DNA of 17,123 nt from Candidatus Eiseniibacteriota bacterium (GTDB lineage: Bacteria > Eisenbacteria > RBG-16-71-46), in contig JBGAOA010000081.1 in NCBI GenBank assembly GCA_044222065.1, forward strand, positions 1 through 17,123. The letters are read 5' to 3'. Position 1 is the first letter of the stretch, and each line of letters starts with the position of its first letter. Positions 1,673 to 17,123 of this stretch are shown here, piece after piece. The position numbers were made by a program, and so were the translations under genes. The notes beneath the pieces were generated by a model. The model did no database searches, was not told where the DNA came from, and saw nothing but the letters and a program-made list of their open reading frames with translations.

Positions 1673-2491
1673 ATGGCAGGCGGACTCGAACTCCTTCCGA
1701 CCCCCGCGGGGCTCGCGGTGGCCGCGACGTGCGTCGCGGCCGGCATTCCGTGCGCGCTCGAAGGCTGGCGCGTGTGGCGGCTGTCGCGCGCGCTCGGCGG
1801 CATCCGGCGCGTCGCGGTCGCGGACGCGCACGAGGGCTTCGCCCATCTCGCGGGCAAGGTCGTGCTCGAGAGCCCGCTGTTCGCGCCGCTCTCGGGGGCC
1901 GCGTGCGCCGCGTACCGGCTCGAGTTCGTGGATCCGCACGGCGTGACCGTCGCGTCGCACTCCGAGTGCCGCCCGTTCGGCGTGCTCGACGGCGACGCCG
2001 TCGCCCACGTCGAACCCGGACGCGCGCAGCTCGACTTCGCGGTCACGACGACGCGCGAGGCGCTCGAGCGCGAGGCGCTGAGCGAGAACGTCGAGGCGAT
2101 CCTCGCGCGCTCGCCCGAGGCGCAGTGGCTGCGGCGGAACGGTTCGGTGCGGCTCGTCGAGACGTCGCTCGTGGCCGGCGGCTTCTGCCACGTCGTGGGG
2201 CGCGTGCGGCACCGCGAGGAAGCGGTGCGGGTCGAGCAGGAGTGGCTGCGCACCGGCACCGACGACGTTGCCATCGGCGGCGAGACGACGCTGAGCGGCG
2301 CGGAGGTGTGGGTGGACGAGGGCGGCGCCGACGGCTTCCTGCTCGTGTCGGACCGCAGTCCCGAGGAGCGCGCGCTGCGGCTGCCACGCTGGCGCGCGCT
2401 CGGCCTCGTCGCCGGTCCCGCGCTCACGATCGCCGGGCTCGTGTACCTCGCGCACCTCGCCGAGCAGCTGCGCGGCGCGCGCGGGTTCTAG
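1673..2491 (+). CDS. GIDE/BAM-domain-like membrane protein (N- and C-terminal TM helices)
   Basis: Hydrophobic ends; core LFAPLSGAACAAY..PFGVLDG..AHVEP..ETSLVAGGFCHVVG..LLVSDRSPEE aligns by eye with the next ORF and the GIDE pattern. The start has no clear RBS. Confidence 0.65.
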   Translation: MAGGLELLPTPAGLAVAATCVAAGIPCALEGWRVWRLSRALGGIRRVAVADAHEGFAHLAGKVVLESPLFAPLSGAACAAYRLEFVDPHGVTVASHSECRPFGVLDGDAVAHVEPGRAQLDFAVTTTREALEREALSENVEAILARSPEAQWLRRNGSVRLVETSLVAGGFCHVVGRVRHREEAVRVEQEWLRTGTDDVAIGGETTLSGAEVWVDEGGADGFLLVSDRSPEERALRLPRWRALGLVAGPALTIAGLVYLAHLAEQLRGARGF

Positions 2492-2500
2492 GGAGGAGCG

Positions 2501-3313
2501 ATGGACGACCTTCGGTGGCAGTTCATCGCGGGCTGTTGCGTGATCGGCGGGCCGATCGCGTTCTACCGCGGCTTCCGCGACCTGCACGTGCGGCGCCTGA
2601 TCGACAACACGCCGACGTCGAACATCGCCTCGATGGCGATCGGCATGGTCGAGGTGAACGGCTCGACGATCGGCCGCAGCCGCACCGTCGCGCCGTTCTC
2701 GGGCCGCGAGTGCGTGTACTGGCAGATCGAGGTCGCCACGCGCGGACGCCCTCGCGACGGCTGGCGGACCGTGCACAAGAACGCGTCGGGCAATCCGTTC
2801 TTCCTGCGCGACCCGAGCGGCGTGGCGATGGTCTATCCGCGCGGCGCCGAGTGCCGGCTGCAGCACGGCGTCGAGGAGGACTGCCTCGGCATCAGCCTGC
2901 CGCCCGTGTACGCGGACTACTTGAACGAGGTCGTCGGGGCGCAGTCGAAGCTGTGGCGGCTCGGGCACATGCGCTTCCGCGAGCGCCTGCTCGAGGAGGG
3001 GCAGCGGATCTACGTGATGGGCTACGCGGCCCCGAAGGCCAACGCGCTCACGATTTCCGAGCCCGAGGAGGACCTCGAGGCCACCGGAACGGAGAACTAT
3101 TCCGCGCGCCGCATCCGGCCGATACAAGACGAGGTCTCGGCGGTGATCCGCCAGGGACAGAACGAGAAGACGTTCATCATCAGCCAGGACTCGGAGAAGA
3201 CGGTGTCGCTGATGTACGGCCTCAAGGCGAGCGGGAAGCTCGTCGGCGGACCGATCGCGACGCTCGCGGGACTGGCGTACTGGCTCGATTTCCTGAGGCG
3301 GATGAGCCACTGA
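2501..3313 (+). CDS. GIDE/BAM-domain membrane protein
   Basis: GGAGGAG RBS; RLIDNTPTSNIAS..GMVEVNG..APFSGRECVYW..PFFLRDPSG..RFRERLLEEGQRIYVMG..FIISQDSEK; TM helix at each end. Confidence 0.85.
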   Translation: MDDLRWQFIAGCCVIGGPIAFYRGFRDLHVRRLIDNTPTSNIASMAIGMVEVNGSTIGRSRTVAPFSGRECVYWQIEVATRGRPRDGWRTVHKNASGNPFFLRDPSGVAMVYPRGAECRLQHGVEEDCLGISLPPVYADYLNEVVGAQSKLWRLGHMRFRERLLEEGQRIYVMGYAAPKANALTISEPEEDLEATGTENYSARRIRPIQDEVSAVIRQGQNEKTFIISQDSEKTVSLMYGLKASGKLVGGPIATLAGLAYWLDFLRRMSH

Positions 3314-3356
3314 CGGCGCATCCGCGATTTCCGGCCGCAACGCACGGGGGAACCCG

Positions 3357-3938
3357 ATGAATCATCCGGGAGAGATTCTGGTCACCGTCGCTCTGGGCTT
3401 CATGGTCGTGGGGCTCTTGGGCTACGCGATCTCGATCTACAACGGCCTCATCGCGCTGAGGAACAACATCGGCCGTGCGTGGGCGAACATCGACGTGCTC
3501 TTGAAGCAGCGGCACGACGAGCTGCCGAAGCTCGTGGCGACGTGCGAGGGCTACATGCAGCACGAGCGCGCCGTGTTCGACAAGCTGTCGGAGGCGCGGG
3601 CGGCGCTCGCCGGCGCGCGCGGCGTCGCGCAGCGGGCCGAGATCGAGAACCAGATCACGCGCGCGATCGGCCAGATCTTCGCCGTCGCCGAGCAGTACCC
3701 CGTGCTCAAGGCCGACCAGGCGTTCCTCGCGCTGCAGAGCCGCATCAGCCAGCTCGAGAACCAGATCGCGGACCGCCGCGAGTTCTACAACGACACCGTG
3801 ACGACCTTCAACACGCGCATCCAGCAGGTGCCGGACATCATCGTGGCGAACTGGCTGTCGTTCCAGCCGAGCGAACTGTTCAAGGTCGCCGAGTCCGACC
3901 GCGAGGACGTGAAGATCCAGTTCAAGATGGCGGGGTGA
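3357..3938 (+). CDS. lemA: LemA family protein
   Basis: N-terminal TM, then YNGLIALRNNIGRAWANIDVLLKQRHDELPKLV..AVAEQYPVLKAD..LENQIADRREFYNDTVTTFNTRIQQVP, the typical LemA signature. Confidence 0.95.
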   Translation: MNHPGEILVTVALGFMVVGLLGYAISIYNGLIALRNNIGRAWANIDVLLKQRHDELPKLVATCEGYMQHERAVFDKLSEARAALAGARGVAQRAEIENQITRAIGQIFAVAEQYPVLKADQAFLALQSRISQLENQIADRREFYNDTVTTFNTRIQQVPDIIVANWLSFQPSELFKVAESDREDVKIQFKMAG

Positions 3939-4012: not shown

Positions 4013-6895
4013 ATGAACGGAATCGAATCGAGACGGGCACCGTGTGAAGCGGTGCCCGTTGGTGCCTCCAGATCACTGGCGAAGAGCGGCGCGCGATGCC
4101 GCTGGCGGTCAGCAGCGCTCGTGCTGGCCTCGATCGTTTTCGTGAGTCCCATCTGCCTCGCGTCGAGCCGCTTCCTGGCCCCCGCGCACTACACTTATGC
4201 GGGATACGGAGATCCCTTCGTTCGCTCCGGCGGCTTCGCCCTGGGGGACTTTGACGAAGACGGAGTGGTGGACGCGGTCTCGCTATCGCTCGTCGGCGAC
4301 GGGGTGGCCGTCCTGCTCGGCCGCGGGGACGGGACCTTTTCGCTCGAGCACGGATTCGGAGTGGGTCGCCCGCGCTGCTTCGCCGTCGCCGACTTCGATC
4401 GGGACGGCCATGAGGACGTGGCAGCGTTGGACGATCGAAGCTGCCGCGTCTACTTCGGAAGTGGGCCCTCACTTGATTGGCAGGAGGTCGCGATCGACCT
4501 TCCCTTGGCCGCCCAGCAGATGGCCGCGGCGGATTTCGATGGGGACGGGCAACCGGACCTCGCTCTCGCGAGTTGGTCAAATGAGCTCCGCGTGCTGATG
4601 AGCCGACCGAGTCGCGCCTTCTCCCAGATTGCCAGCCCAGAGGACAGCATCGATGGCACGCCGATCGACCTTCTCTCGGCCGATCTCAATCGAGACGGCC
4701 TCGCGGATCTCGTGCTGAGAAGCTCCCCGATTCAGGCTCTGTTACTCACCTCTCGCGGCGATGGGACGTTTCATCGGCGCACGATGGAGTCCCAACTCCT
4801 CGGCAATGACCTCGTCGTCACGGATGCGACTGGAGATGGGATTCCCGACCTCGTGACGGCCGGCTGGTTCTCGGTCGCGGTTCTTCCCGGGCTCGGTGAC
4901 GGGACCCTTGGGCAGCCGACGACGACGAGTTCGTACTTCTGGCTGCACGAAGAGCCGCAAGGGGTCGCCGTTGGAGACGTGACGGGCGACGGGATCGATG
5001 ACGTGCTGGTCACGCTTCAGTCCAGGGTCGCCACGTTCGCCGGGCTTGGGGGAGGCGTCTATGAAGCCCGGTCGGACGTCTGGGGTACACCGACACTGGG
5101 GGAACCGCTGTTGACGGATCTCAACGGTGACGAGCGACTCGACCTGATCTCCACTGAGCTGGAGAACTCGGGCATCAGCAGCATGCTTGGAGATGGGGCC
5201 GGCAGATTCGGCGAGCGAACATCTCCGGCCTGTTGGGCCGGACCGAACGCACTGCCCGTCGCGATTGCAGATGTCGATGAAGATGGACGACGCGATCTCA
5301 TCGCGTTGAACTTCTCGAACGATGGCCTGCAGTACTGGACGGGTGTAGCACTCTCCCGTGGGGTCCGAGGATTCGAATACGTGGGAAGTCCCGCATTCCC
5401 GCCTCATTTGAATCGCATGCAAGTCGAGGATTTCGATCAGGACGGACATCTCGACTTGATCGGTTGGGGGCAGGGCAGCTTCGGCTATTTGCCTGGCGAT
5501 GGCGCCGGGAGCTTCGGAGAGCATCGCACGCTCCCGTCGGCCCTCGACTCGCGAGTCGCCGATGTCAACGGGGATTCGCGTCCGGACATCGTGAGCGCCT
5601 CCGGGAATTCGATTCGGGTCAGGTTGAATCTCGGGTATGGCGAAGTCTCGAGCGAGATACTCACGGCCCTTCCCCCCGGGGTCCGCTTCCACCACTTCCT
5701 CGTCGGTGACCTGAATGGCGACTCACGGTCCGATCTGGCAGCAGCCGCTTACTCCACGGGTGAACCAGTCGCCTGGACTACGAGCCTGTTGGCCTATTCG
5801 ACGGGAGACGGGCACTTTGAATTGCAGGAGCGGATCTGGACAGGACAACCGAACGAGCCCGCGATCTTCGACGCGAATGAGGACGGGCGATTGGATTTCG
5901 GGGTCTTGGAGCGAATGCAGACCGCGGTTGGGTACTCGAGCGTAGAGGACCTTTGGCACATCCGAATTCAAGACTCCAACGGCAACCTGGGTCCGGAAGT
6001 TCTCGAAGAGTGGCCCGCTCGGTCGACCCCGGGCGGCAGCCGAATGTCGCTTGGTCCTGGTGAGGTGCCGACCTGGTTCCTCCATCGCTCGGCGTTCGGT
6101 GTGAGGCGAGGGGACGAGTCGGGTCGAACGATCGAGTGGGATGAGTATTCCGGGCTCGATCCCTATCCGCCTGATCCGGTGTTCGGGGACCTCGACGGAG
6201 ACGGACGCTCGGAATTCACCATCCGCCGTTTGGAGGGCGGGCCCCAAGGCGACAGCTTGCGCATCTTCTGGGGCCGCGACCCCGAGCCTCCGACCGGCAT
6301 CGTGTACGAGCCGCCGGGCGGGCTCGTGATGGCGGCTGGGCACGTGAAGACCCTGCGCTGGAAGGCGCAGGACAACCGCGGGCTCACGACGACGGACCTG
6401 TTCTTGTCCCGGCACGGCCGCCGCGGACCGTACGAGCGCATCGCCCTCGAGCTGCAGGACGCGACGTCGTACGACTGGAATGTGACGGGGCCGCTGTCGG
6501 ATAGCGTCGCGATCAAGCTCGTGATGCACGACGTGGATCGGAACGTCGGACTCGCGATCACGAGCGAGATGGGGCGGATCGTCGAGACGCTCGATGCGAG
6601 CGACGAGGGTTCGCGCCCGCGCGCGCTCGCGATCCGCGGCGTGACGCCGAACCCGGCGCGCGAGTCCGTGTCGTTCGACCTCGACGTGCCGGCGGAGTCG
6701 GCGGTGACGCTCGACCTGATGGACCTGCAAGGGCGGCGCGTGGCGCGGCTGTGGAGTGCGGAGCGGGAGCCCGCGGAAACGCGGCGGCTGACGTTCACGC
6801 GCTCACAGCTTCGTGGCGCGAGCGCGGGGATCTACTTCGTGCGGGCGCAGGCCGGCGGCGCGACGGCCGTCCGGCGCGTGGCGCTGCTCGACTGA
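4013..6895 (+). CDS. Secreted FG-GAP/VCBS repeat protein with an Ig-like domain and a C-terminal FlgD/T9SS type A-like domain
   Basis: Signal-like RWRSAALVLASIVFVSPICLA; more than ten D-[FLV]-[DN]-x-D-G-x-x-D-type repeats (e.g. GDFDEDGVVD, ADFDGDGQPD, ADLNRDGLAD); Ig-like EPPGG..TLRWKAQD..SYDWNV; C-terminal GVTPNP..LDLMDLQGRRVARL..AGIYFVRAQAG..RRVALLD. Confidence 0.88.
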   Translation: MNGIESRRAPCEAVPVGASRSLAKSGARCRWRSAALVLASIVFVSPICLASSRFLAPAHYTYAGYGDPFVRSGGFALGDFDEDGVVDAVSLSLVGDGVAVLLGRGDGTFSLEHGFGVGRPRCFAVADFDRDGHEDVAALDDRSCRVYFGSGPSLDWQEVAIDLPLAAQQMAAADFDGDGQPDLALASWSNELRVLMSRPSRAFSQIASPEDSIDGTPIDLLSADLNRDGLADLVLRSSPIQALLLTSRGDGTFHRRTMESQLLGNDLVVTDATGDGIPDLVTAGWFSVAVLPGLGDGTLGQPTTTSSYFWLHEEPQGVAVGDVTGDGIDDVLVTLQSRVATFAGLGGGVYEARSDVWGTPTLGEPLLTDLNGDERLDLISTELENSGISSMLGDGAGRFGERTSPACWAGPNALPVAIADVDEDGRRDLIALNFSNDGLQYWTGVALSRGVRGFEYVGSPAFPPHLNRMQVEDFDQDGHLDLIGWGQGSFGYLPGDGAGSFGEHRTLPSALDSRVADVNGDSRPDIVSASGNSIRVRLNLGYGEVSSEILTALPPGVRFHHFLVGDLNGDSRSDLAAAAYSTGEPVAWTTSLLAYSTGDGHFELQERIWTGQPNEPAIFDANEDGRLDFGVLERMQTAVGYSSVEDLWHIRIQDSNGNLGPEVLEEWPARSTPGGSRMSLGPGEVPTWFLHRSAFGVRRGDESGRTIEWDEYSGLDPYPPDPVFGDLDGDGRSEFTIRRLEGGPQGDSLRIFWGRDPEPPTGIVYEPPGGLVMAAGHVKTLRWKAQDNRGLTTTDLFLSRHGRRGPYERIALELQDATSYDWNVTGPLSDSVAIKLVMHDVDRNVGLAITSEMGRIVETLDASDEGSRPRALAIRGVTPNPARESVSFDLDVPAESAVTLDLMDLQGRRVARLWSAEREPAETRRLTFTRSQLRGASAGIYFVRAQAGGATAVRRVALLD

Positions 6896-6936
6896 GCCGC
6901 GCGGCGCGAACTCCCGCACACACGAATGCCCCGGGC
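6894..6936 (+). repeat. Left copy of a degenerate direct repeat flanking the TA module
   Basis: GAGCCGCG...CACGAATGCCCCGGGC; 6921-6936 matches 7798-7813 at 15 of 16 positions. Confidence 0.55.
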
Positions 6937-7121
6937 GGTTGGCCTGCTCCGAGATTCAAAATGCTGGTGCGCCCGATCCGCCGTCACCTTCGAAGGACGA
7001 GAGGTCAGGGAACCCGTCCCTCTCCTTCGCCCCTCCTCTGCGGTGTATTCTCCGCCTCGGTCTGATCGCGAAACCGAGCCGTCGCGTGGAAGCGACGCGG
7101 TCGTTCGAACGGAGCAATTTC

Positions 7122-7424
7122 ATGTCTGAATTCATTGGCTACGACGCCATGGACCTCGCCCGTCTCTGCTCGCGCTGGAGAGTGCGGGAGCTGTCGTTCT
7201 TCGGCTCGCTGGCCGATGGCACGTTCGGCGAGTCGAGTGACGTGGACGTCCTCGTGACGTTCGACGCGAGCGCCGGCTGGAGCCTGGCGGACCTCGTCGA
7301 GATGCGAGAGGAACTGGTCGCGTTGTTTCGGCGCGAGGTCGATCTCGTCGAGGAAGCGGCGCTCCAGAATCCTTTCCGCCGTGCGGCGATCTTGAAATCG
7401 AAGCGAGTGGTTCATGCGGCCTGA
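7122..7424 (+). CDS. mntA: Minimal nucleotidyltransferase (MNT) antitoxin
   Basis: ATG at 7122 after GGAG (in frame with track ORF 6813..7424); 100 aa; FGSLADGTFGESSDVDVLV fits GS-x10-DxD; also REVDLVEE..LQNP. Confidence 0.9.
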   Translation: MSEFIGYDAMDLARLCSRWRVRELSFFGSLADGTFGESSDVDVLVTFDASAGWSLADLVEMREELVALFRREVDLVEEAALQNPFRRAAILKSKRVVHAA

Positions 7425-7779
7425 AGAACGGGACGCAGCTCACCTCTGGGACATGCTTCGCGCGGCCCGCGAAGCGCACCGCTTCGCTTCCGAGGTATCG
7501 GCACATTCGTTCGCAACCGACCGCATGCGACAGCTCGCCGTCGAGCGCGCGGTCGAGATCATCGGTGAGGCCGCGAATCGCGTCTCGGAAGCGTGTCGCT
7601 CGAGGCATCCGGAAATCCCGTGGCGCTCGATCATCGCTCAGCGAAACGTCCTCGCGCACGAGTACGGAGAGATCAGGCAGGAACGCATGCACGCGCTCGC
7701 GACAACGAGGCTTGTGGAACTCATCGCGCAGCTCGAGCGGGTCGTGCCGCCCGCTCCAGAGGCGCCTCCCGCGGGATAG
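7414..7779 (+). CDS. hepT: HEPN (DUF86/HepT-like) RNase toxin
   Basis: LAVERAVEIIGEAANRVS..HPEIPWRSIIAQRNVLAHEY contains the R-x4-H-x-Y motif; overlaps the MNT gene by 11 nt. Confidence 0.92.
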   Translation: MRPEERDAAHLWDMLRAAREAHRFASEVSAHSFATDRMRQLAVERAVEIIGEAANRVSEACRSRHPEIPWRSIIAQRNVLAHEYGEIRQERMHALATTRLVELIAQLERVVPPAPEAPPAG

Positions 7780-7875: not shown

Positions 7876-8229
7876 CTACTTCGCCTGCGGCATCGCGTGG
7901 CCCTCGTCGAGCCAGCGCTTGAGATCTGTCATGTCCTTCGCGTTCTCGGCGAACTGCGCGCCGCGCTTCGTCAGCTTCGTCGAACCGGGCTTGCGCACGT
8001 GGCACGCGGTGCAGCGGCCGAACGACGAGCGGATCTGGTCGTAGCCGTCGAGCGTCTTGCGCGCCTCGAAGTACTTGCCGCGGTCCGTGAGCAGCTTGCT
8101 GCCCGGCTTGTCGTGACACGCGACGCACTGCTGCCCCGTGTCCTTCGCGAGCTTCTCGGACGCCGCGGCGAAGCTCGCGAGCGCGAGCGACGCGGCGACG
8201 GCGAGGACGACGATTCCCAGCGTCTTCAT
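7876..8229 (-). CDS. Small periplasmic dihaem c-type cytochrome
   Basis: ATG at 8229 after GAGAGG; Sec-type signal MKTLGIVVLAVAASLALASFAAA; two CxxCH motifs (CVACH, CTACH); 117 aa. Confidence 0.88.
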   Translation of the reverse strand: MKTLGIVVLAVAASLALASFAAASEKLAKDTGQQCVACHDKPGSKLLTDRGKYFEARKTLDGYDQIRSSFGRCTACHVRKPGSTKLTKRGAQFAENAKDMTDLKRWLDEGHAMPQAK

Positions 8230-8251
8230 CGAACGTTCCTCTCTCACCGGG

Positions 8252-9586
8252 TCACTTCCCGGAGAAGGCCTTGCTGAAGCCCACGGAGACGGTCCACTGC
8301 GAGTGGTCCACCGACGCACCGGGGCCGAACGGGTTCACGTTCTGGTTCGTGTTGTTGTTCGTCTGCGACGCCTCGAAGCCGCGCTCGAGCGCGAGGTTCA
8401 GCGTGTTCGCGCCCCACGTGTAGCCGAAGCCGAGCGCCGCGTGCTGTTCGACCGTGGCGGGGAACAGCGGGTTGAGCGTCTCGTCGGGCACCGGGCTCGC
8501 GCCGAAGTTGTAGCCGCCGCGCAACGTCAGCGCGTCGGTCGCGCGGTACTCGACGCCGCCGATCCACGTCCACTCGTCCTTCCACTCGAACGTGAATGGC
8601 ATCGTGACCGTGGACATCATCGCGGGCAGCGGCTGGTCGGGATTCGTGCCCTTCACCTTGATGAGGCTCACCGCGTCGCTCCACAGGTAGCGGCGCGCGT
8701 CCACCGCGACGCGCCAGCGCTCCGCGGGCTTGAGCTGCACGCCGAGTCCGACCTGGTCGGGCCACGTGAAGCCCTCGACGGTCGCGTCGTAGTGCACGAC
8801 GCCGGCGCCGATCGAGTTCATGTTCAGCGACAGCGTGCCGTTCTCGTAGTCGCCCTGCGTCTTCGTCTGGTAGATCGCGCCGAGCTGCAGCTCGGGCAGC
8901 GCGCTCCACATCAGGCCGACGCGGCCGCTGTAGTTGAGCGCGCTCGCGCGCTTGTTCAGGTTCGCGCCGAAGAACGCCATGTCGTCGGTCGGATCGAGCG
9001 GCGTGCCCATGTCGTTGTAGTAGCTGGTATTCGGATAGAAGCGGAACTTGAGGTCCGAGTAGCCGACGTTCGCCGACACGCCGATCGAGAAGTCCTCGAC
9101 GGGCGTGAACGCGACGGTGGGCGTGGCGGTGAGGAAGCGCACTTCGCTGTACGTGCCGTCCTTCGTGCCGAACGGCGTGCTGTAGCCCTCGAACTGCGCG
9201 CCCATGCCGCCCTGGCTCAGGAGGCCGAAGCCCCACGTCCACGGCGAGCGCGCGCCGCCGCGCACGTACGAGATCGACGGCATCGCGAAGATCGCGTCCT
9301 TCGCGTCGAGCGAATTGCCGAACGGATCGCCGCCGTAGTGGAGGCTCGGCGCGAGCAGCTGGAGGTCGGCGCTCAGGTGGCCGCCCTGGAGCTGCGCGAT
9401 GCCGGCCGGGTTCGCCTGCAGTCCGAGCGCGCGGTCGGCGACCGCGATGTTCGCGCCCGCGCGGCCGGCGGCTTCGCTGCCGTACGCCGCGAGGTACATG
9501 CCGTTCGTGGCGAGCGCGGGGCCCGCGGCGAGCGCGACGAGCGCGATCGCGGCGAGGGCGCGCGCGGGAATCGGGATTCGGGTCAT
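8252..9586 (-). CDS. OmpP1/FadL/TodX family outer-membrane channel
   Basis: ATG at 9586 after GAGGAGG; signal peptide, then ATNGMYLAAYGSEAAGRAGANIA..ANPAGI (hatch-domain NPA motif); amphipathic beta strands, EWKDEW, LTLRGGYNFG; 444 aa. Confidence 0.92.
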   Translation of the reverse strand: MTRIPIPARALAAIALVALAAGPALATNGMYLAAYGSEAAGRAGANIAVADRALGLQANPAGIAQLQGGHLSADLQLLAPSLHYGGDPFGNSLDAKDAIFAMPSISYVRGGARSPWTWGFGLLSQGGMGAQFEGYSTPFGTKDGTYSEVRFLTATPTVAFTPVEDFSIGVSANVGYSDLKFRFYPNTSYYNDMGTPLDPTDDMAFFGANLNKRASALNYSGRVGLMWSALPELQLGAIYQTKTQGDYENGTLSLNMNSIGAGVVHYDATVEGFTWPDQVGLGVQLKPAERWRVAVDARRYLWSDAVSLIKVKGTNPDQPLPAMMSTVTMPFTFEWKDEWTWIGGVEYRATDALTLRGGYNFGASPVPDETLNPLFPATVEQHAALGFGYTWGANTLNLALERGFEASQTNNNTNQNVNPFGPGASVDHSQWTVSVGFSKAFSGK

Positions 9587-9915
9587 GGGTGAGTCCTCCT
9601 CACGGCCCGACCGGGGGCGATCGCGCCGTCCTTCGGCGGCGCGACGAAACCCGCGATGCGGGCGATCGAGACCTCGGCGTCTCCGGGAAACAACGTGGCG
9701 AGTTCGTCGCGGCCGAGATCGGTGAGCCGTTGCAGCGTCGCGAGGCCGGGCGCGCATCCCGTGCGCGCGGCTTCCTCGCGGTATCGAGCGATGACGTTCC
9801 AGTGCCGGTGCGTGAGTCGCGGGATGCCGAGCGCGCGCGCGGCGAGCGCGGCGCGGTCGGGCGTCCATTCGGAGGCGGCCGGCCGGAGGCCGCGCGGAGT
9901 CCGCGTGCGCGTCAC
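9583..9915 (-). CDS. DsrC/TusE-family fold protein lacking the C-terminal cysteines
   Basis: EWTPDRAALAA..GIPRLTHRHWNVIARYR..G.AP..LATLFPG..ARIAG matches the DsrC/TusE consensus. GTG start after GAGG; stop overlaps the fadL-like ATG (ATGA). Confidence 0.8.
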   Translation of the reverse strand: MTRTRTPRGLRPAASEWTPDRAALAARALGIPRLTHRHWNVIARYREEAARTGCAPGLATLQRLTDLGRDELATLFPGDAEVSIARIAGFVAPPKDGAIAPGRAVRRTHP

Positions 9916-9922
9916 GGCCGCC

Positions 9923-10609
9923 TCAGCAGCCTTCCTTCTGCTTCTTGCGCGCCGCGGGAGTGCCGACGGGACGCGGCGGCGCCTTCGGCGCGATCGTCGA
10001 GCCGCCCGCGTCGGTGGCGCCCGCGACCGGCAGCGCGAACGCAGCGCCGGCGGCGGCGGACGACGCCGCGCGCGGCGCGCCGCCGAACGAGCGCGCGACC
10101 TCGGCCGCGCGCGCGAACGCCGCGAGCGACTCGCGCGACGAGTCCGACGGCGCCGCCGGATAGAGCACGTCGTCCTTCCAGCCCTCGAGCCCGTCGTAGA
10201 GGATCTTCGCGCCGGCGAAGCGCTCGGCCTCGAGCAGGAACCACGCTTGCGCGGCGTGCACGCCGCCGTCCGAGTAGAGGACGATCGTCTCGTTGCGCTG
10301 AAGCCCCGCGTCCATGAGCCGCGCGACCGGGACGTTCTCGGCCGTCGGAATGTGGTACGCGGCGTACGCGCTGTCCGAGCGCAGGTCCACGAGCCGGTAG
10401 TCCGAGCGGGCCTGCAGGATCCAGTCGGCGAGTTCGCGGGCGGTGACGTGGTCCACCGCGCCGCCGACGATCGTCGCGAGTCGCCGCGAATCGAGCCGCA
10501 CCGCGTGACCGGTGTAGGGATCGCCCGCGAGCGCCAGCACGCCGAGCCCGAGCGCCGCCGCGGCGAGCGCGCGGTTGCGCGTCCAGAGGAAGCGGGGCGT
10601 CGCGTTCAC
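9923..10609 (-). CDS. Membrane-anchored or exported rhodanese-fold protein with a C-terminal EGC tail
   Basis: N-terminal hydrophobic helix; VTARELADWI..LVDLRS..YHIPTAENVP..IVLYSDGG..LYDGLEGW; Ala/Pro-rich linker ending KKQKEGC; GTGA overlap with the upstream gene and GGAGG RBS. Confidence 0.88.
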   Translation of the reverse strand: MNATPRFLWTRNRALAAAALGLGVLALAGDPYTGHAVRLDSRRLATIVGGAVDHVTARELADWILQARSDYRLVDLRSDSAYAAYHIPTAENVPVARLMDAGLQRNETIVLYSDGGVHAAQAWFLLEAERFAGAKILYDGLEGWKDDVLYPAAPSDSSRESLAAFARAAEVARSFGGAPRAASSAAAGAAFALPVAGATDAGGSTIAPKAPPRPVGTPAARKKQKEGC

Positions 10610-11214
10610 GGCCGCGCCTCCGCGCCTTCGCGTCTACCGAAGCGGCGCTCGACCCACTCGGCGCCCGCGAAGCCGCCGAGCGCCATGAGCACGACGAGCA
10701 GCACGACGAGCCCGTACGGGAGGTGGAACGCCTTCGGCAGCGTGAGCGTGCCCATGGCGCCGCTCTCGTAGAACGGCTTCACGAACGGGAACGACTCGCC
10801 GAACGCGAACACGCCCGCGAACACGCCGGCGACGAACACCATCGCGTCCACGCGGCCCGTCGCCATCGCGACCATCGAGGTGCCGGGGCAGTAGCCGCCG
10901 ATCACGAAGCCGAGCCCGAGCACGAGGCCGCCCGCGATCTGCGGCCACAGGAACGTCGGCGTGAGCGAGACGAGCGACAGGTCCACGACACCGGCCCACG
11001 ACAGGTAGAACACGCCGAGCATCGCGGTGACGATCGCCGTGAACATGACCTTGAACACCGCGAGATCGTTCAGATAGAACTGCGAGACGAGCTTCTTCGC
11101 GCTGCCGAAGCCCGCGCGCTCGAGGAAGAACCCGAACGCGATGCCGATCGCGAACGCCACGACGAGCGACGTCTCGCCGCCGAACGCGCCGAACTTGTAG
11201 AAGGGAGCGTTCAT
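10606..11214 (-). CDS. YeeE/YedE (sulfur transport) family membrane protein, second half-type
   Basis: ATG at 11214 (ATGA overlap, GAGGAGG RBS); GIAFGFFLERAGFG..KVMFTAI..GGLVLGLGFVIGGYCPGTS; 202 aa. Confidence 0.9.
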   Translation of the reverse strand: MNAPFYKFGAFGGETSLVVAFAIGIAFGFFLERAGFGSAKKLVSQFYLNDLAVFKVMFTAIVTAMLGVFYLSWAGVVDLSLVSLTPTFLWPQIAGGLVLGLGFVIGGYCPGTSMVAMATGRVDAMVFVAGVFAGVFAFGESFPFVKPFYESGAMGTLTLPKAFHLPYGLVVLLVVLMALGGFAGAEWVERRFGRREGAEARP

Positions 11215-11798
11215 CGCCACTGCCTCCTCACGACGGCGGCGAACGCGTAGGCGCCCGCGAACACCATCATCATGAAGGCCCAGCTGCCGGCGTTGAGCAG
11301 CGCGCCGCCGGTGAGCGCCTGGCCGCTCGTGCAGCCGCGCGCGAGCTTCGCGCCGACCCCCATGAGCGCGCCGCCGAGGAACGCGAGCGCGAGCCGTCCG
11401 GCGTTCGAGATGCGCGGGCCCTTCTCGATCGTGCGCTGCACGCGGCCGGCGAGCAGGCCCGACAGGAACCCGCCGACGATCACGCCGAGCACTTCGAACA
11501 CGAGCCACGCCTTGAGCGGATGTCCGAGGCCGCCCTCGGCGTACTCCTTCCAGAACGCGTTCGCCTGCACGTGTTCGGGGCTCGCGAGCCCGAGGAGCCA
11601 CGAGATCGTGGACGACACGGCGCCCGAGGCGCCGAGCCCGCGGCCCATGACGACGAACGCGGTCAGCAGCACGAGGCCGAGTCCGAGTCCGGCGAGGTAC
11701 GGATTGCTGTACGCCGCGGCGCGGGCGGGCGCCCGGTCGTGCGCGTGGTCGCGCGCGTCGGACCCGCTCGCGGCGTGGACGTTCGAAACGACGGTCAT
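11211..11798 (-). CDS. YeeE/YedE (sulfur transport) family membrane protein, first half-type
   Basis: GGAGGGAG RBS; NPYLAGLGLG..GLGASG..FLGGALMGVGAKLARGCTSGQALTG. Confidence 0.9.
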   Translation of the reverse strand: MTVVSNVHAASGSDARDHAHDRAPARAAAYSNPYLAGLGLGLVLLTAFVVMGRGLGASGAVSSTISWLLGLASPEHVQANAFWKEYAEGGLGHPLKAWLVFEVLGVIVGGFLSGLLAGRVQRTIEKGPRISNAGRLALAFLGGALMGVGAKLARGCTSGQALTGGALLNAGSWAFMMMVFAGAYAFAAVVRRQWR

Positions 11799-11814: not shown

Positions 11815-12765
11815 TCACACCCGGCCCCAGTGGCTCGCCTGACCGGCGTAGACGATCACGATGCGCAGCAGCAGCCCGCCCGCGAGCACGAGCACGGGCG
11901 CCACCGGCGTGTGGCGCACGCGGTGACCGACCGCGAGCGTCTGGACGAACAGCGGTACGGCGATTCCGATCCCGACGACGCCGACCCAGAACACGCTCGT
12001 GTAGGGGCCGCCGAGCACGAGCCCGGCCGCTTCGGCGTGCACGCGCGTCGAGGTGACGAGGCCGATCAGGAACAGCGCGAGCAGCGCGAGTTCGGCTTGC
12101 AGGAAGCGGTTGTCGGCGCGCGCGAGGAACTCGCTCTCGGCGCGCTCCTTCGCGACCATGTGGACGAGCGCCGCCGCGCTCGAGAGGCCCGAGGCGAGGA
12201 ACAGCGGCCCGAGCAGCGCGCTGTTCCAGAGCGGCCGCGCGCCGAGCGTGCTGAGCAGGATGCCGGTGTAGATCCCGAGCGCGCCGCCGAGCACCATGTT
12301 CGTCGCGGCCACGGCGCGCACGAGCCGCGCGTCGCGGTTCCACGCCTCGGACCACGCGGCGAGCGCTGGCGCGCGGTCGCCGAGCCACGCGGGCAGCCGC
12401 AGCACGAGGTTCGCGAGCAGCGCGGGGTAGACGGCGACGAGGATCCACGCGCCCCACGACATCGGCGAGGCCGGCTGGAACGCGACGTAGAGCCGCCACA
12501 CGTAGAGCTTGTGCTCGAGGTCGAGGAACAGCGCGAGCATGCCGAGCGACAGCAGCACGATGCCGAGCCCCGGAAGCAGGTAGGCGACCGAGTCCGCGCG
12601 GCGGTGGCGGTCCGAGAACAGAAACCAGCCCGAGATCGCCATCATGCCGGCGACGAGTCCGCCGAGGAACAGGTACGCGGGGATCTGCCACGCCCACACG
12701 TGCAGCGTCGGGTCCACGAGGTGGTTCGCGCGCGTCGAGACGAGGTCGGTCATGGCGTCGCTCAC
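11815..12765 (-). CDS. psrC: Polysulfide reductase membrane subunit, NrfD/PsrC family
   Basis: GTG at 12765 overlaps the psrB stop (alternative ATG at 12753); WAWQIPAYLFLGGLVAG, LFLDLEH, SPMSWGAWIL, IYTGILLS..RPLWNS..PLFLASGLSS, GGLLLR; about eight TM segments. Confidence 0.92.
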   Translation of the reverse strand: MSDAMTDLVSTRANHLVDPTLHVWAWQIPAYLFLGGLVAGMMAISGWFLFSDRHRRADSVAYLLPGLGIVLLSLGMLALFLDLEHKLYVWRLYVAFQPASPMSWGAWILVAVYPALLANLVLRLPAWLGDRAPALAAWSEAWNRDARLVRAVAATNMVLGGALGIYTGILLSTLGARPLWNSALLGPLFLASGLSSAAALVHMVAKERAESEFLARADNRFLQAELALLALFLIGLVTSTRVHAEAAGLVLGGPYTSVFWVGVVGIGIAVPLFVQTLAVGHRVRHTPVAPVLVLAGGLLLRIVIVYAGQASHWGRV

Positions 12766-13301
12766 GTGAGGAAGTGGATGCGCGGGCCGGTGCCGGCCTC
12801 GCTCAGCAGCGCGTGAGAACGGCGCGACGCGAGCAGCCGGCTCACCTCGCTGTTCGGATCGTCGAGGTCGCCGAAGTGCATGCAGCGCGTCGGGCACACC
12901 GCGACGCACGCCGGCTCGAGGCCCTGCTTCACGCGGTGAAGGCAGAACGTGCACTTGTCCGCGTAGCCCTGCGGGTGGATGAAGCGCGCGTCGTACGGGC
13001 ACGAGGCGAGGCACGCCTTGCAGCCGATGCACAGCTCCTTCGCGACCTGCACCGTGGCGCCAAAGTCCTCGACGTGGCTCGCGCCGGTCGGGCAGCACGC
13101 GACGCACGGGGGACGGTCGCAGTGGTTGCAGCGCTCGCTGCGGATCTCGAGCCGCAGGTCCGGGAACTTGCCGCTCGTCTCCTGCACGATCCAGTCGCGG
13201 CAGTGGCCTTCGGGAACGCCGTTCTCGGTCTTGCAGGCCACGACGCAGTCCATGCAGCCGACGCAGCGCGCCGTGTCGATCACCATGCCGAAGCGGGCCA
13301 C
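12762..13301 (-). CDS. psrB: Four-cluster [4Fe-4S] electron-transfer subunit (PsrB/NrfC/DmsB type)
   Basis: CVGCMDCVVAC, CNHCDRPPCVACCP, CIGCKACLASCP, KCTFC..ACVAVCP; GTG start after GGAGG. Confidence 0.95.
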   Translation of the reverse strand: MARFGMVIDTARCVGCMDCVVACKTENGVPEGHCRDWIVQETSGKFPDLRLEIRSERCNHCDRPPCVACCPTGASHVEDFGATVQVAKELCIGCKACLASCPYDARFIHPQGYADKCTFCLHRVKQGLEPACVAVCPTRCMHFGDLDDPNSEVSRLLASRRSHALLSEAGTGPRIHFLT

Positions 13302-13302
13302 G

Positions 13303-15495
13303 TCAGACCTCCGGCTCGAGCGTGACGAAGTTGACGTTCATCGCGGTGCCGCCCATGAGCGGGTCCACGACGTAGCGCGTGACGAGCCCGGCGTCGCTCG
13401 CTCCGCGCTTCGAGCGCGGCGCGAGTCCGCGCGCCGAATGTCCGAAGCCGTGCACCAGGTAGACGCAGTCGCCGCGGATGCGCTCGGTCGCGCGCACCGC
13501 GACCGGCGCGCTCAGCGCGCCGTCCTGGTTGCGCAATCGCACGCGCGCGCCGTCGTCGAGGCCGAGCCGGCGCGCGACGTCGGCGTTCAGCCACACGACG
13601 TTCTCGGGCATCATCTCGAGCAGCAGCGGGTTCGTCTGCGTACGCCCGAACGAGTGCACGGGCGCGCGGCCGAACAGCAGGCGAAACGAGCCCGGGGGCG
13701 GCGCTTCGTGCGCGCGGAAGCGCGGCACCGGGTCGAATCCCGCGTCCGAGAGGCGCGTGGACCAGAACTCGATCTTGCGGCTCGGCGTCGCGAACTCGGC
13801 CGGCACGCCCTCTTCGAAGTACACCGGGCCGCGCGCGCCACGCACGATACCGGTGGTCTTCAGCTCGTCGAAGCTCAGCCCCGCGTTGCGAAGGCGCGTC
13901 TCGAGGTACTCCTCGATCGTCTTCCACGGGAAGTACGCGCCGAGCCCGGTGCGGTGCGCGAGTTCGCGCGCGATCCACCAGTTCGGCTTCTGGTCGTGCG
14001 GCGGCGGCACGACGGGCTGGCGCAGAGCCACGAACGGGTCGCGGAACAGCTCGACGTTCAGGTCGTCGTAGCGCTCGAGGTAAACGCTCTCGGGCAGTAC
14101 GACGTCGGCCCAGCCGGCGATCTCGCTCGGGACCACGTCCACGACGACGACGAGGTCGAGGTTCTGCAGCGCGCGGATCGTCTCGGCCTCGTTCGGCAGC
14201 GCCTGCAGGAGGTTCGTCGCGTACACGAACCAGCCCTTGATCGAGTACGGCTGGCCCGTGATCGTGGCTTCGCGCAGGCCGGTCGTCAGCACTTCGTCGG
14301 CGAATGGATGACGGTCGCCGGGATTGTCGGCGCGGCCGCGGTGAGGCTTCGCGTACGGCGGGTACGGGTAGGGTGGAACGCTCATGCGCTGCGGCACGAA
14401 GAAGCCGCCCTTGCGGCCCCAGCTGCCGAGCAGCGCGTTCAGCAGCGCGACCGCGCGGCTGCGCTGCGCGTCGTCGCCGTACCACGTCACGTGGCGGCCG
14501 GGGTGGACGAGGCTCGCGGGCCGGTGGCGCGCCATCTCGCGCGCGGTCTCGCGGATCAGCTCCGGCGCGAGCGACGTGCGCGGATAGGCCCACTCGGGCG
14601 TGTACGCCGCGATCTCGGCCGCGAACTCGGCGAAGCCGTAGCCGTGCGACTCGACGTACTCGCGATCGTACAGGCCCTCGGTGACGAGCACGTTCATCCA
14701 CGCGAGCAGCAGCGCGAGGTCGGTGCCGGGCGTGATCGGCAGGTAGTACTTCGCCTTGCTCGCGGCGGTCGAGAAGCGCGGATCGACGACGATCACGGTC
14801 GCGCCGCTGCCGACCGCGTCCGCGAACTCCTGCACCTGCGAGTTGTGCATGTTCTCGCCGAGGTGCGAGCCGATCAACGTCAGGCAGCGCGCGTTCGCGA
14901 TGTCCGTGCGCTCGGGCGAGCCGATGTCCTCGCCGAACGTGAGCTGGAAGCCGATGTCGCGCGGCCCGCGGCACTGCGCATAGGACGGCGCGCTGAGGTT
15001 CGGCGTGCCCCACGCCTTGAAGAAGTGCTTGAGGAAGTTGCCGCCGATGCCGTGGCTGAAGAGCGCCATGGACTCGGGGCCGTAGCGATCGCGGATCGCC
15101 TGCATCTTCGTCGCGATCGTGTCGAGCGCCTCGTCCCACGACACCGCGACCCACTCCTCGGCGCCGCGCTCGCCCTTGCGGACGAGCGGAGTCTTGAGCC
15201 GCTGCGAATCGAAGTGCGCGCCGACGCCGCCCGTGCCGCGCGGGCACAGCCGGCCGCGCGAGAGCGGATCGCGCGGATTGCCCTCGATCTTCCACAGCCG
15301 CTCGCCGCGGACGCTCGCGATCGCGCCGCACTTCCAGAAGCACACGTCGCAGAACGTCGGCACCGTCCGCACCGGCGCGTTCGGATCGTCCTGCGCCGCG
15401 AGTTCGTGCGCGGCGCGCGCGCCCGAGCCCGCGAGCGCGAGGCCCGTCGCGGCGGCCGAGATCTGGAGGAATCGTCTGCGTGAGAGTTCGGGCAT
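13303..15495 (-). CDS. psrA: Tat-exported Mo/W-bis-PGD oxidoreductase catalytic subunit, polysulfide/thiosulfate reductase (PsrA/PhsA) clade
   Basis: ATG at 15495 after GGAG; Tat motif LSRRRFLQ; FS0 motif CDVCFWKC..RLCPRG; FSHG; likely Mo-ligand Cys in PSYAQCRGPR; PGTDLALLLA, WADVVLPESVYLER, VHSFGRT, VHGFG; 730 aa. Exact substrate cannot be determined from sequence. Confidence 0.9.
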   Translation of the reverse strand: MPELSRRRFLQISAAATGLALAGSGARAAHELAAQDDPNAPVRTVPTFCDVCFWKCGAIASVRGERLWKIEGNPRDPLSRGRLCPRGTGGVGAHFDSQRLKTPLVRKGERGAEEWVAVSWDEALDTIATKMQAIRDRYGPESMALFSHGIGGNFLKHFFKAWGTPNLSAPSYAQCRGPRDIGFQLTFGEDIGSPERTDIANARCLTLIGSHLGENMHNSQVQEFADAVGSGATVIVVDPRFSTAASKAKYYLPITPGTDLALLLAWMNVLVTEGLYDREYVESHGYGFAEFAAEIAAYTPEWAYPRTSLAPELIRETAREMARHRPASLVHPGRHVTWYGDDAQRSRAVALLNALLGSWGRKGGFFVPQRMSVPPYPYPPYAKPHRGRADNPGDRHPFADEVLTTGLREATITGQPYSIKGWFVYATNLLQALPNEAETIRALQNLDLVVVVDVVPSEIAGWADVVLPESVYLERYDDLNVELFRDPFVALRQPVVPPPHDQKPNWWIARELAHRTGLGAYFPWKTIEEYLETRLRNAGLSFDELKTTGIVRGARGPVYFEEGVPAEFATPSRKIEFWSTRLSDAGFDPVPRFRAHEAPPPGSFRLLFGRAPVHSFGRTQTNPLLLEMMPENVVWLNADVARRLGLDDGARVRLRNQDGALSAPVAVRATERIRGDCVYLVHGFGHSARGLAPRSKRGASDAGLVTRYVVDPLMGGTAMNVNFVTLEPEV

Positions 15496-15539
15496 CGTCC
15501 GGCTCCATCCGAGGTCCAACGAGGCGACCACGGTCGTAG

Positions 15540-15555
15540 AGCAGCGCCGATGCCA
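15540..15555 (-). promoter_or_regulatory. Sigma-54 (RpoN) -24/-12 promoter of the psr operon
   Basis: Minus strand reads TGGCATCGGCGCTGCT: exact GG-N10-GC spacing, close to consensus TGGCAC-N5-TTGCW; about 45 nt upstream of the psrA ATG. Confidence 0.85.
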
Positions 15556-15611
15556 CGGGCTAACCCGTTGTCGTTCAAAGGTCGCGTTGACGCGCGCAGG
15601 CGGCCGAACAC

Positions 15612-15647
15612 GAAACGTCGCGACGCAACGTCGCGACGTGACGTTTC
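15612..15647. promoter_or_regulatory. Candidate upstream activator sequence (tandem palindromes)
   Basis: AACGTCGCGACG at 15614-15625 and 15627-15638, within the inverted repeat GAAACGTC...GACGTTTC; about 60-95 bp upstream of the -24 element. Confidence 0.65.
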
Positions 15648-15677
15648 AGTGGAGTGGCCGAGCGGAGGAGCTTGGCG

Positions 15678-17077
15678 TCAGCTCGCGAGGCCGAACTCGC
15701 GCATCTTCCGCCACAGCGTCGAGCGGCTGATGCCGAGCGAGCGCGCGGCGTCCACGCGATTCCAGCGGTGGCGCTCGAGCGCCGCGAGCAGCGCGTCGCG
15801 CTCGCCCGCGGCCGGCGCGGTGGGCGCGTGGGCCGACGCGGGGGCGGGCGCCGCGATCGCCGGCGCGCTCGCGCGCGCGGCGGCGGCCTCGAGGATCTCG
15901 GCCGGCAAGTCGCGTTCGTGGATCGTCTGTCCGTGGCACACGGCGACCCGTACTCGAGCGTGTTCTCGAGCTCGCGGACGTTGCCGGGCCACGCGTGCTC
16001 GAGCAGCGCGCGCAGCGCGTCGGGCGCGACGAGCAGCGCGCGGCCCTGGCGCGCCGAGACGCGCGAGCGGTGGCGCGCGAGCGGCTCGATGTCCTCGCGC
16101 CGCTCGCGCAGCGGCGGGATCGCGATCGGGAGCACGCGCAGGCGGTAGTAGAGGTCGCCGCGGAAGCGTCCGTCCATGACGTCGCGCTTCAGGTCGCGGT
16201 TCGTCGCGGCGACGATGCGCACGTCGGAACCGCGCGACTCGCTCTCGCCGACGCGCTCGAACGTGCGCTCCTGCAGCACGCGCAGCAGCTTCACCTGAAG
16301 CGCCAGCGGCAGGTCGCCGACCTCGTCGAGGAACAGCGTGCCGTGGTCGGCGAGTTCGAAGCGCCCGACGCGGTCGCGCACGGCGCCGGTGAACGCGCCG
16401 CGCACGTGGCCGAACAGCTCGGACTCGAGCAGTTCGCCCGGGAGCGCGCCGCAGTTGACCGCGACGAACGGTCCTTCGCGCCGCGGCGAGTGCGCGTGCA
16501 GCGCGCGCGCGACCAGCTCCTTGCCCGTGCCGCTCTCGCCCGTGAGCAGCACGGTCGAGTCGCTCTCGGCGAGGTCGAGGATCAGCCGGAAGATGCGCAG
16601 CATCGAAGGCGAGCGCCCGACGAGCCCGGCGAAGATCGTCGGCAGCGCGGTCTCGGGCACGCTCGCGTCCTCGGCCGAGCGGATCACGATCATGTAAGCG
16701 ACGCGCGGATCGCAGAGCGGCGACTCGATGCCCTTCACGGGCGCCGCCGAGAGCGACAGGAGCCGCGGCGCGCGGCCTTCGATCTCGAGCGTGGCGCCCC
16801 AGCCCTCGCGCCGCTCGCCCGCCGCGAGCGCTTCGCGCAGCGCGCCGCCCTCGCCGAACAGCTCGGCGCCGAGCGCGCGCTCGGCGGGCAGGCCGACGTG
16901 GGCGTTCGCGGCGCCGTCGCCGGCGATCGCATCCAACTCCTCGGACGCGTGGACGATCGTGAACGACGGATCGAGGCACACGAGCGCGCGGCCGAGGCAG
17001 CCGAACAGCCCGCTCACCGTGTGGACGAAGTGGCGGCTCAGCTCGGGATCGGGCGGACCGTGCGTCCCGTCGCTCAC
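15678..17077 (-). CDS. Sigma-54-dependent enhancer-binding protein (PAS-like, AAA+, Fis-type HTH), frameshifted near 15948
   Basis: GTG at 17077 after [50 protein letters not shown] in one frame; [27 protein letters not shown] in a second frame ending at 15678. No receiver domain is evident. Confidence 0.9.
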
Positions 17078-17084
17078 GCGCGCC

Positions 17085-17123
17085 TCAGCTCGGCGTCGCC
17101 GCCGCGGGGGCGGGCACCGCACG
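17085..17123 (-). other. Possible 3' end of an upstream co-directional gene
   Basis: One frame reads ..RAVPAPAAATPS-TGA with the stop overlapping the GAGG RBS of the regulator; too short to identify. Confidence 0.3.

Follow-up and report, generated by a model that had tools for sequence, protein, structure and literature searches.

Introduction

The arm of SoxY bears the motif GGCGG, DsrC carries cysteines on its C-terminal tail, and the rhodanese Sud uses an active-site Cys. In CstB, a mobile Cys loop is reported to shuttle sulfur between sites (bioRxiv 10.64898/2026.02.20.707092). Among channels, the YeeE of S. thermophila has its N-terminus outside and its C-terminus inside, with H1-H6 ending outside and H7 returning inside to link the two halves; Cys22 and Cys91 point toward the cytoplasm, and Cys293, which is essential, lies on the periplasmic side (PMC7449682). 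In split channels, PmpB matches the N-half of YeeE and PmpA the C-half (PMC11582611), while YedE1E2 imports zero-valent sulfur by way of its two Cys (PMC10812762).

A phsABC-pmpA/B-sulfurtransferase cluster has been reported for Ca. Electryonea clarkiae, Caldithrix abyssi and Ca. Lernaella stagnicola, with the suggestion by its authors that an unknown sulfur compound formed when thiosulfate is reduced is taken up (PMC9324843). In the main text of that report, the word "cysteine" occurs in amino-acid lists only.

Here we analyze a 17,123-nt stretch of DNA (the window) from a Candidatus Eiseniibacteriota genome, in which a rhodanese-fold gene follows the genes of a Psr/Phs-type reductase and a split YeeE channel. 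Judging from sequence, we propose with a probability of roughly 0.6 that the rhodanese is a third, periplasm-facing, tethered carrier subunit of the channel, and that its tail would carry sulfane sulfur as SoxY does.

Results

A rhodanese fold with Ser at the catalytic position and a terminal Cys

The gene and the parts of its product map to the window as follows.

9923..10609, minus strand: Ser-type rhodanese-fold protein (Cys-less at the catalytic site), 228 aa, GTG start, TGA stop
10526..10579, minus strand: hydrophobic helix near the N-terminus (residues 11-28), predicted to be an N-in/C-out anchor; lies internally in natural fusions with YeeE
10160..10453, minus strand: rhodanese fold, about residues 53-150 (Pfam, AlphaFold, Foldseek)
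10271..10273, minus strand: Ser113 codon TCG at the catalytic-Cys position (sequence and alignments)
10079..10159, minus strand: family-specific extension past the fold, with Pro151, a helix at 159-174 and a conserved FGG at 175-177
9926..10078, minus strand: Ala/Pro/Gly-rich arm of 51 residues, then a basic patch and Glu-Gly-Cys228 (codon 9926-9928)

The preliminary description had read the active-site loop as one in which Ser replaces the catalytic Cys, and the last residue as the only Cys, placed after an Ala/Pro/Gly-rich linker. Both readings were borne out. Residues 110-118 are VLYSDGGVH. When the loop is aligned without gaps to solved rhodaneses, Ser113 falls at the position of the catalytic Cys in 3iwh and YgaP. 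Cys228 is both the sole Cys and the final residue, closing a stretch of 77 residues that holds 24 Ala, 8 Pro and 8 Gly. The Pfam Rhodanese model (PF00581) matches residues 62-146 (E 1e-13, 51.9 bits against a cut-off of 22.2) and Foldseek returns rhodanese folds for the 228-aa model with a probability of 1.00, which together place the protein in the rhodanese/Cdc25 fold superfamily; the catalytic Cys that opens the active-site loop in the GlpE, PspE, YgaP and Sud class is missing. No NCBIfam model scored above its cut-off for this protein, and its ESM Atlas matches were unnamed rhodanese clusters only. In the AlphaFold model, helices span residues 11-28 and 159-174, the rhodanese core is confidently placed (block pLDDT 94-98, residues 61-180) and the tail from about residue 187 to 228 lacks secondary structure (block pLDDT 50-74). 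The N-terminal helix is only moderately hydrophobic, with a best 19-residue mean of 1.3.

Contigs from two public DNA runs carry an identical Ser codon and list no difference at the Cys and stop codons; together with the homologue conservation described below, this rules out a sequencing artefact at Ser113 or Cys228. The public runs holding this stretch come from sludge, bioreactor, biofilm and wastewater samples. RNA-library contigs from two runs also span 9790-10219 with 1-2 differences, though their shares are small and such contigs cannot show transcription.

Conservation of the Ser site and the terminal Cys

Homologues almost always share both features: among the 120 listed of 230 found (self included), position 113 is Ser in 118 and Cys in none, and the last residue is Cys in 119, counts that include kin and hence are not independent. 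At the best 80 of 219 genome loci, which represent the operon type of this window (hereafter type A), a terminal Gly-Cys is present in 77/77 complete genes; the Ser count at these loci was set aside because the scan pattern itself contained the Ser. The closest named relatives are Ca. Eisenbacteria MAGs (58-64% identity), and the MAGs with this gene cluster belong to Eisenbacteria, Gammaproteobacteria, Bacteroidota, Ignavibacteria, Acidobacteriota, Gemmatimonadota, Myxococcota, Calditrichota and KSB1.

More distant representatives (n=140, being 147 new rows minus 7 multi-rhodanese proteins) have Ser at the catalytic site in 109 cases, Ala in 14, Gly in 13, Thr in 2, and Asp and Cys in 1 each. 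In this set 114 end in Cys, 3 have a Cys within the last three residues and 23 have none there, most of the last appearing to be frameshifted or cut; a clean change of the last residue was seen in two of them (P0140 and P0209) and likewise in one of the 120 listed homologues (P0019). Mean column conservation is 0.53 in the arm before the motif, the least conserved region, vs 0.80 in the last nine residues, which are conserved most of all. As a control, the commonest last residues listed for five other operon proteins in the same loci included no terminal Cys. Neither of two outcomes set down beforehand as counting against the preliminary description, a terminal Cys not kept by homologues and a catalytic Cys generally retained by them, appeared.

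Several other explanations of these residues were considered and dropped. A Ser-His hydrolase is disfavoured because His118 is kept in close members only and lost in many distant homologues. Selenocysteine encoded by the TGA after Cys228 is ruled out, since the terminal Cys is followed by TGA 45, TAG 18 or TAA 14 times in the 77 complete loci; the conserved in-frame TGA of C-terminal Cys-Sec selenoproteins is thus lacking. Lipoprotein or Tat export was also rejected, with a Cys in the first 40 residues in 5/68 sequences and a Tat-like motif in 0/68, in rows that begin near residue 7.

The operon and its surroundings

The rhodanese is the sixth gene of a minus-strand run that begins with psrA/phsA, psrB, psrC/nrfD and two YeeE halves, and it is followed by genes for a DsrC-like protein, an outer-membrane barrel and a small two-CxxCH protein.

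15540..15555, minus strand: sigma-54-type -24/-12 promoter match upstream of psrA (1 match vs 0.01 expected by chance)
13303..15498, minus strand: PsrA/PhsA molybdopterin subunit, Tat-like signal
12762..13301, minus strand: PsrB 4Fe-4S subunit
11815..12753, minus strand: PsrC/NrfD membrane subunit
11211..11798, minus strand: YeeE half a (C-half, PmpA-like); its single Cys, in GCTSG, equals Cys293 on the outer side of the channel
10606..11214, minus strand: YeeE half b, PmpB-like; matches the N-half of YeeE from S. thermophila and adds a final H7-like helix
9583..9915, minus strand: DsrC/TusE-like protein without C-terminal cysteines; accessory, rare
8252..9586, minus strand: FadL/TodX-type outer-membrane barrel; accessory
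7876..8286, minus strand: small exported protein in which CxxCH occurs twice; accessory and rare

Half b, the fusion partner of the rhodanese, has a single Cys, in GYCPGT (=Cys91), and no equivalent of Cys22. The closest solved relative of the PsrA is T. thermophilus PsrA (2VPW, 740 bits). The promoter match was scored against a sigma-54 -24/-12 consensus. Upstream of psrA lies a sigma-54 activator gene (15575-17122, minus strand), whose C-terminal helix-turn-helix is out of frame with its AAA domain near 15945; this frameshift is either an assembly error or the mark of a broken gene.

In the genome to which the window belongs (94% complete), YeeE and DsrC matches are confined to the window, and no match was found to TusA/YeeD, SoxY or DsrA. 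The C-terminal cysteines are missing from all five copies of the DsrC/TusE-like protein that we compared (window, L006, L018, L085 and L167); the four copies outside the window have a Cys in an internal CRE-like motif, and the window's copy has none. Past the end of the operon, a nucleotidyltransferase and HepT-like (DUF86) pair (6813-7779, plus strand) forms a typical MNT-HEPN toxin-antitoxin-like module. Three further spans (2-1568, minus; 1673-3938 and 4013-6895, plus) hold an ECF sigma factor with a Ser/Thr-kinase-like ORF behind it, a pair of membrane proteins with GIDE domains alongside LemA, and an FG-GAP repeat protein whose C-terminal domain is sorting-like.

Type A operons and natural fusions to YeeE

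Counting only loci with enough upstream DNA (best 80 of 219), type A genes adjoin yeeE_b in 76/76 cases and yeeE_a in 74/74, with psrC (64/65), psrB (58/59) and psrA (51/52) further upstream; the single locus without an adjoining psrA has PsrABC on another contig of its genome. Wider psrC-yeeE or psrB-psrC spacing at four loci (L026, L035, L064, L074) suggests inserted genes. Barrel, DsrC-like and cytochrome genes are accessory rather than core parts, because they occur in only 7/37, 0/37 and 0/37 well-flanked type A loci. The type A gene was present in only 4/61 relatives, of which 10 have a PsrA-like match.

All 15 of the longer type A homologues are YeeE_b-rhodanese fusions ending in EGC, and YeeE_b-rhodanese fusions are present in all three of the types described here. 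Apparent yeeE_a-yeeE_b fusions at L002 and L031 proved to be frameshifts. In a YeeE_b tree of 44 sampled rows, types B and C separate with full support and the type A fusions need two changes. Nested inside type A in this tree is the YeeE_b of locus L167 (L167:3108-11328, genome G001), where the order is psrA, psrB, a cytochrome b561 gene replacing NrfD, two yeeE halves, DsrC-like, barrel and cytochrome c, and where the arm gene is absent; the arm can therefore be lost. We also considered a split DsrC, in which the arm would supply the Cys missing from the DsrC-like protein, and found it unsupported: few loci carry the DsrC-like gene, and at L167 it occurs where no arm gene is present.

The preliminary description had envisaged a carrier shuttling among the barrel, PsrA and the YeeE pair. 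Its link to the YeeE pair emerges stronger than first claimed, given the natural fusions, and the barrel drops out as a general feature, the FadL/TodX gene being found in 7/37 well-flanked type A and 0/81 type B loci. The PsrA link stands for the operon type of this window and, as shown below, fails for the family.

Predicted topology

Half b aligns to the N-half of YeeE and then adds one extra hydrophobic helix with a basic tail, so its C-terminus should be inside. In the natural fusions, 3-7 K/R precede the rhodanese helix with almost no acidic residues ahead of it; since this basic linker lies inside, the helix must cross outward. We infer that the rhodanese domain and arm face the periplasm, where the GCTSG Cys also lies. 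In unfused members, Ala-x-Ala at residues 26-28 would allow possible signal-peptide cleavage.

The opposite orientation would make the domain a cytoplasmic substitute for YeeD/TusA, or for the Cys22 that half b lacks, with the arm Cys unloading the channel from within. YeeD is an essential cytoplasmic partner of YeeE (PMC11073785), and this arrangement would suit a 94%-complete genome with no TusA match, a half b without a Cys22 equivalent and an N-terminal helix of only moderate hydrophobicity. The helix count and charge of the fusions nevertheless place the linker inside and the domain outside, the charge bias ahead of the helix (K/R, almost no acidic residues) points the same way, and S. 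thermophila YeeE C22A still complements (PMC7449682), and we hold a cytoplasmic role to be unlikely.

Types B and C: a constant channel pair and an exchangeable enzyme

Type B proteins, with the tail RRRGC, were collected from 80 metagenome loci (best 80 of 355) and a Gemmatirosa plasmid. A search pattern without the Ser found Ser in 81/81 of them, and the terminal Cys is present in 80/80 complete genes. They adjoin yeeE_b (54/54) and yeeE_a (36/36) as type A genes do, and no reductase gene was found at loci with enough flank (psrA 0/19, psrB 0/25, psrC 0/28). Instead, the upstream gene encodes a tandem rhodanese whose N-terminus is signal-like and whose YCH[IVL]GQQA site is intact (28/28), and downstream in 56/56 metagenome loci lies a class V PLP, cysteine-desulfurase-like gene. 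The type B loci are L081, L086-L165 and L171-L190 (for example L100:5838-10015 and L107:547-4622). The PLP protein carries a GCFCNPG motif, and a response regulator lies upstream in 9/19 type B loci. On another contig of the window's own genome (G000:C73:4590-5552, minus strand), a secreted tandem rhodanese (YCHIGIQA) is 40% identical to the type B enzyme; a close counterpart of the PLP partner is lacking there (best 25%).

Among 251 genomes of one Gemmatimonadota order (Gemmatimonadales), with four candidates scored per genome, 20 matched the type B profile, 19 of them being type B by context or tail. Of the 19 short loci, 16 have the tandem rhodanese, and the PLP gene was seen in 10, or 11 if the cut is widened; it was not seen in five stretches of 8-12 kb and is thus not universal in type B. 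Some tails at these loci (L184-L187, L190) run past the Cys as GCGW, GCY or GCGF, closer to the SoxY arm, so the Cys does not have to stand at the extreme end. After one type B locus, a distant molybdopterin-oxidoreductase-like gene (L181:2119-2859, 27% to PsrA) takes the place of the PLP enzyme.

Type C proteins are always YeeE_b fusions among the 120 listed from a search limited to 215-686 residues. The catalytic site is Gly in 49, Ala in 43, Asp in 10 and Ser in 10, with no Cys among the residues listed (n=120), and 118/120 have a terminal Cys, mostly as GGC. Types A and C are about 28% identical (profile match 99.3%). In psr operons sampled from the Gemmatimonadales, the fusion ending in GGC was present in 8/8 complete ones, a ninth being cut by a contig end. 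Three Cys after residue 200 occur in 42/120 type C fusions (P0285-P0404), with extra Cys in some rhodanese domains; these may form a structural disulfide, as would be in keeping with placement in the periplasm. The median arm of the Psr-linked type C is 26 residues, vs 41 in type A and 38 in type B, and such short arms limit reach; the idea that arm length reflects reach to PsrA finds no support, since the type C arms are the shortest.

In the sequences compared, then, three subfamilies (types A, B and C) retain a terminal Cys without the catalytic Cys. By gene content, the split YeeE (PmpAB-like) pair is their constant partner and the periplasmic enzyme is exchangeable, because YeeE_b accompanies all three types while type B swaps out PsrABC.

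These patterns bear on the possibility that the protein is a Sud-like collector for the reductase, its arm gathering polysulfide for PsrA and the YeeE pair serving as an anchor or bystander. Sud presents polysulfide to Psr (PMC2628731), and the upstream psrA of 51/52 type A loci and the 8/8 sampled type C operons would fit such a role. Type B, however, retains Ser, arm and Cys without psr, as seen both at its loci (0/19) and in the Gemmatimonadales, where a PsrA match at E<=1e-100 was found in 3/20 type B-profile genomes and none in 17/20. The channel Cys motifs of the YeeE halves are, moreover, invariant in 68/68 aligned sequences, and the longer type A homologues are fused to YeeE and never to Psr (0/15). 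A collector serving PsrA is quite improbable in our estimation. Against a carrier subunit of the channel, in turn, count the loss of the arm at L167, the short arms of type C and the T. thermophilus control genome, the source of the closest solved PsrA, in which no YeeE match was found, so that Psr works without the YeeE/arm module.

A proposed route for arm-bound sulfur

If the rhodanese is a carrier subunit of the channel, its N-terminal helix would anchor it beside the channel with the domain outside, and its tip Cys would load sulfane sulfur (as persulfide, polysulfide or S-thiosulfonate) in the manner of SoxY, with the basic patch attracting the anionic substrate and the dead active-site loop parking the loaded arm tip. 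The arm would then carry sulfur between a periplasmic enzyme and the channel's outer Cys (GCTSG), the tip Cys being loaded by, or unloading to, that enzyme, which would be PsrA/PhsA in this window and the secreted, Cys-active tandem rhodanese in type B. Import would be the likelier direction by analogy, because the characterised YeeE and YedE1E2 import.

One Cys, a long tether and tight linkage to the channel would fit a redox gate or reductant equally well: the tip Cys might form a mixed disulfide with the outer channel Cys, or resolve stuck persulfides, with no bulk carriage of sulfur. The cysteines of YeeE are indeed disulfide-bonded in the crystal (PMC7449682). Such a role would leave the rhodanese fold unexplained, however, and both operon types neighbour sulfur-transfer or sulfur-redox enzymes, while the conserved neighbour clusters, judged cluster by cluster, include no recognised thioredoxin-like partner. 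We regard a gate of this kind as very improbable. To a module that handles selenium, tellurium or a soft metal, and in which the Cys serves as ligand, we attach the least credence, even though YedE relatives act in selenium transport (PMC11582611) and weak matches, all short of the cut-off, point to YedE models of selenium type and, in the case of the type B tandem rhodanese, to ExtH. Against it, the mixed stop codons after the Cys give no sign of selenocysteine, the PsrA is closest to the Thermus polysulfide reductase, and thiosulfate stimulates growth of C. abyssi, which has a homologous cluster (PMC9324843).

Discussion

Extending the proposed carrier subunit to the whole clade, we suggest, tentatively and with more doubt than conviction, that its split YeeE channels are three-subunit machines fed covalently bound sulfur by a tethered swinging arm, with an exchangeable periplasmic loading enzyme: PsrABC/PhsABC in types A and C, and in type B a secreted, active rhodanese together with a desulfurase-like PLP enzyme of the cytoplasm. 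If this is true, the Psr/Phs of types A and C would act on protein-bound sulfur, for example cleaving arm-bound thiosulfate and leaving a persulfide for import, and these types would amount to a Sox-like cycle run with a reductase. Such Psr/Phs operons may then serve sulfur import besides respiration. A single-Cys arm built into the channel also bears on the way in which YeeE-family channels are offered their sulfur and on the chemical form of the sulfur that passes through them (PMC11582611). Caution is warranted in annotation, where such proteins are named sulfurtransferases despite the missing catalytic Cys.

The proposed likeness to SoxY is one of function. SoxY, in SoxYZ, is periplasmic and has its sulfur-binding Cys on a flexible C-terminal arm, as proposed here (PMC11237559), and the conserved Cys on such an arm is the feature that the two share. 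The type C tails (GGC) and some type B tails (GCGW, GCGF) come close to the SoxY motif. Unlike SoxY, the present protein has a rhodanese fold, a membrane tether, a much longer arm and a channel as its partner, and no match to the SoxY family (PF13501), with its own fold and SoxZ partner, was found in the protein or in the genome. Sud of Wolinella succinogenes is likewise a periplasmic rhodanese fold linked to a Psr-type reductase (PMC2628731), but our protein has Ser at the active site and its Cys on the tail, and is found also without Psr. As for DsrC/TusE (PF04358), the rhodanese has no DsrC match, and the neighbouring DsrC-like gene has the fold and lacks the tail Cys in 5/5 copies.

Among channel systems, YeeE-YeeD (TsuAB) and PmpAB/YedE1E2 share with the halves described here the equivalents of Cys91 and Cys293, and in them too a Cys-bearing partner can be fused to the channel (PMC7449682, PMC11073785, PMC11582611, PMC10812762). 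The halves here are about 200 aa vs about 130 aa in PmpAB, and half b seems to contain H7, the helix that links the halves. YeeD has a cytoplasmic TusA fold, in contrast to the predicted periplasmic rhodanese fold of our protein, and neither the protein nor the genome matches YeeD/TusA (PF01206; TusA fold with CPxP). Rhodanese folds without a catalytic Cys are known from the pseudorhodanese domain of S. aureus CstB (bioRxiv 10.64898/2026.02.20.707092) and from Anabaena Alr3790; among known inactive rhodanese domains, we found none that combines a membrane anchor with a terminal Cys arm and a YeeE partner.

In the literature searched, which lies largely outside subscription journals and sets supplements aside, neither the Ser/terminal-Cys anatomy nor the type B operon was found described, and the available text of four further papers (PMC13047784, PMC9163753, PMC13188914, PMC13609358) does not describe a Ser-type rhodanese arm protein. 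The reported phsABC-pmpA/B cluster has the gene order of the window's core six genes, with a PmpA/B-sulfurtransferase fusion in Lernaella (PMC9324843). Its main text calls the last gene a sulfurtransferase of unclear function and leaves the lost catalytic Cys and the Cys-tipped arm undescribed; from gene order, we infer that this sulfurtransferase belongs to the present rhodanese family. A tethered carrier subunit would, if correct, explain that cluster. The phsABC-pmpAB-sulfurtransferase cluster is thus already known (PMC9324843), and the Ser/terminal-Cys anatomy and the reductase-free operon of type B appear to be new.
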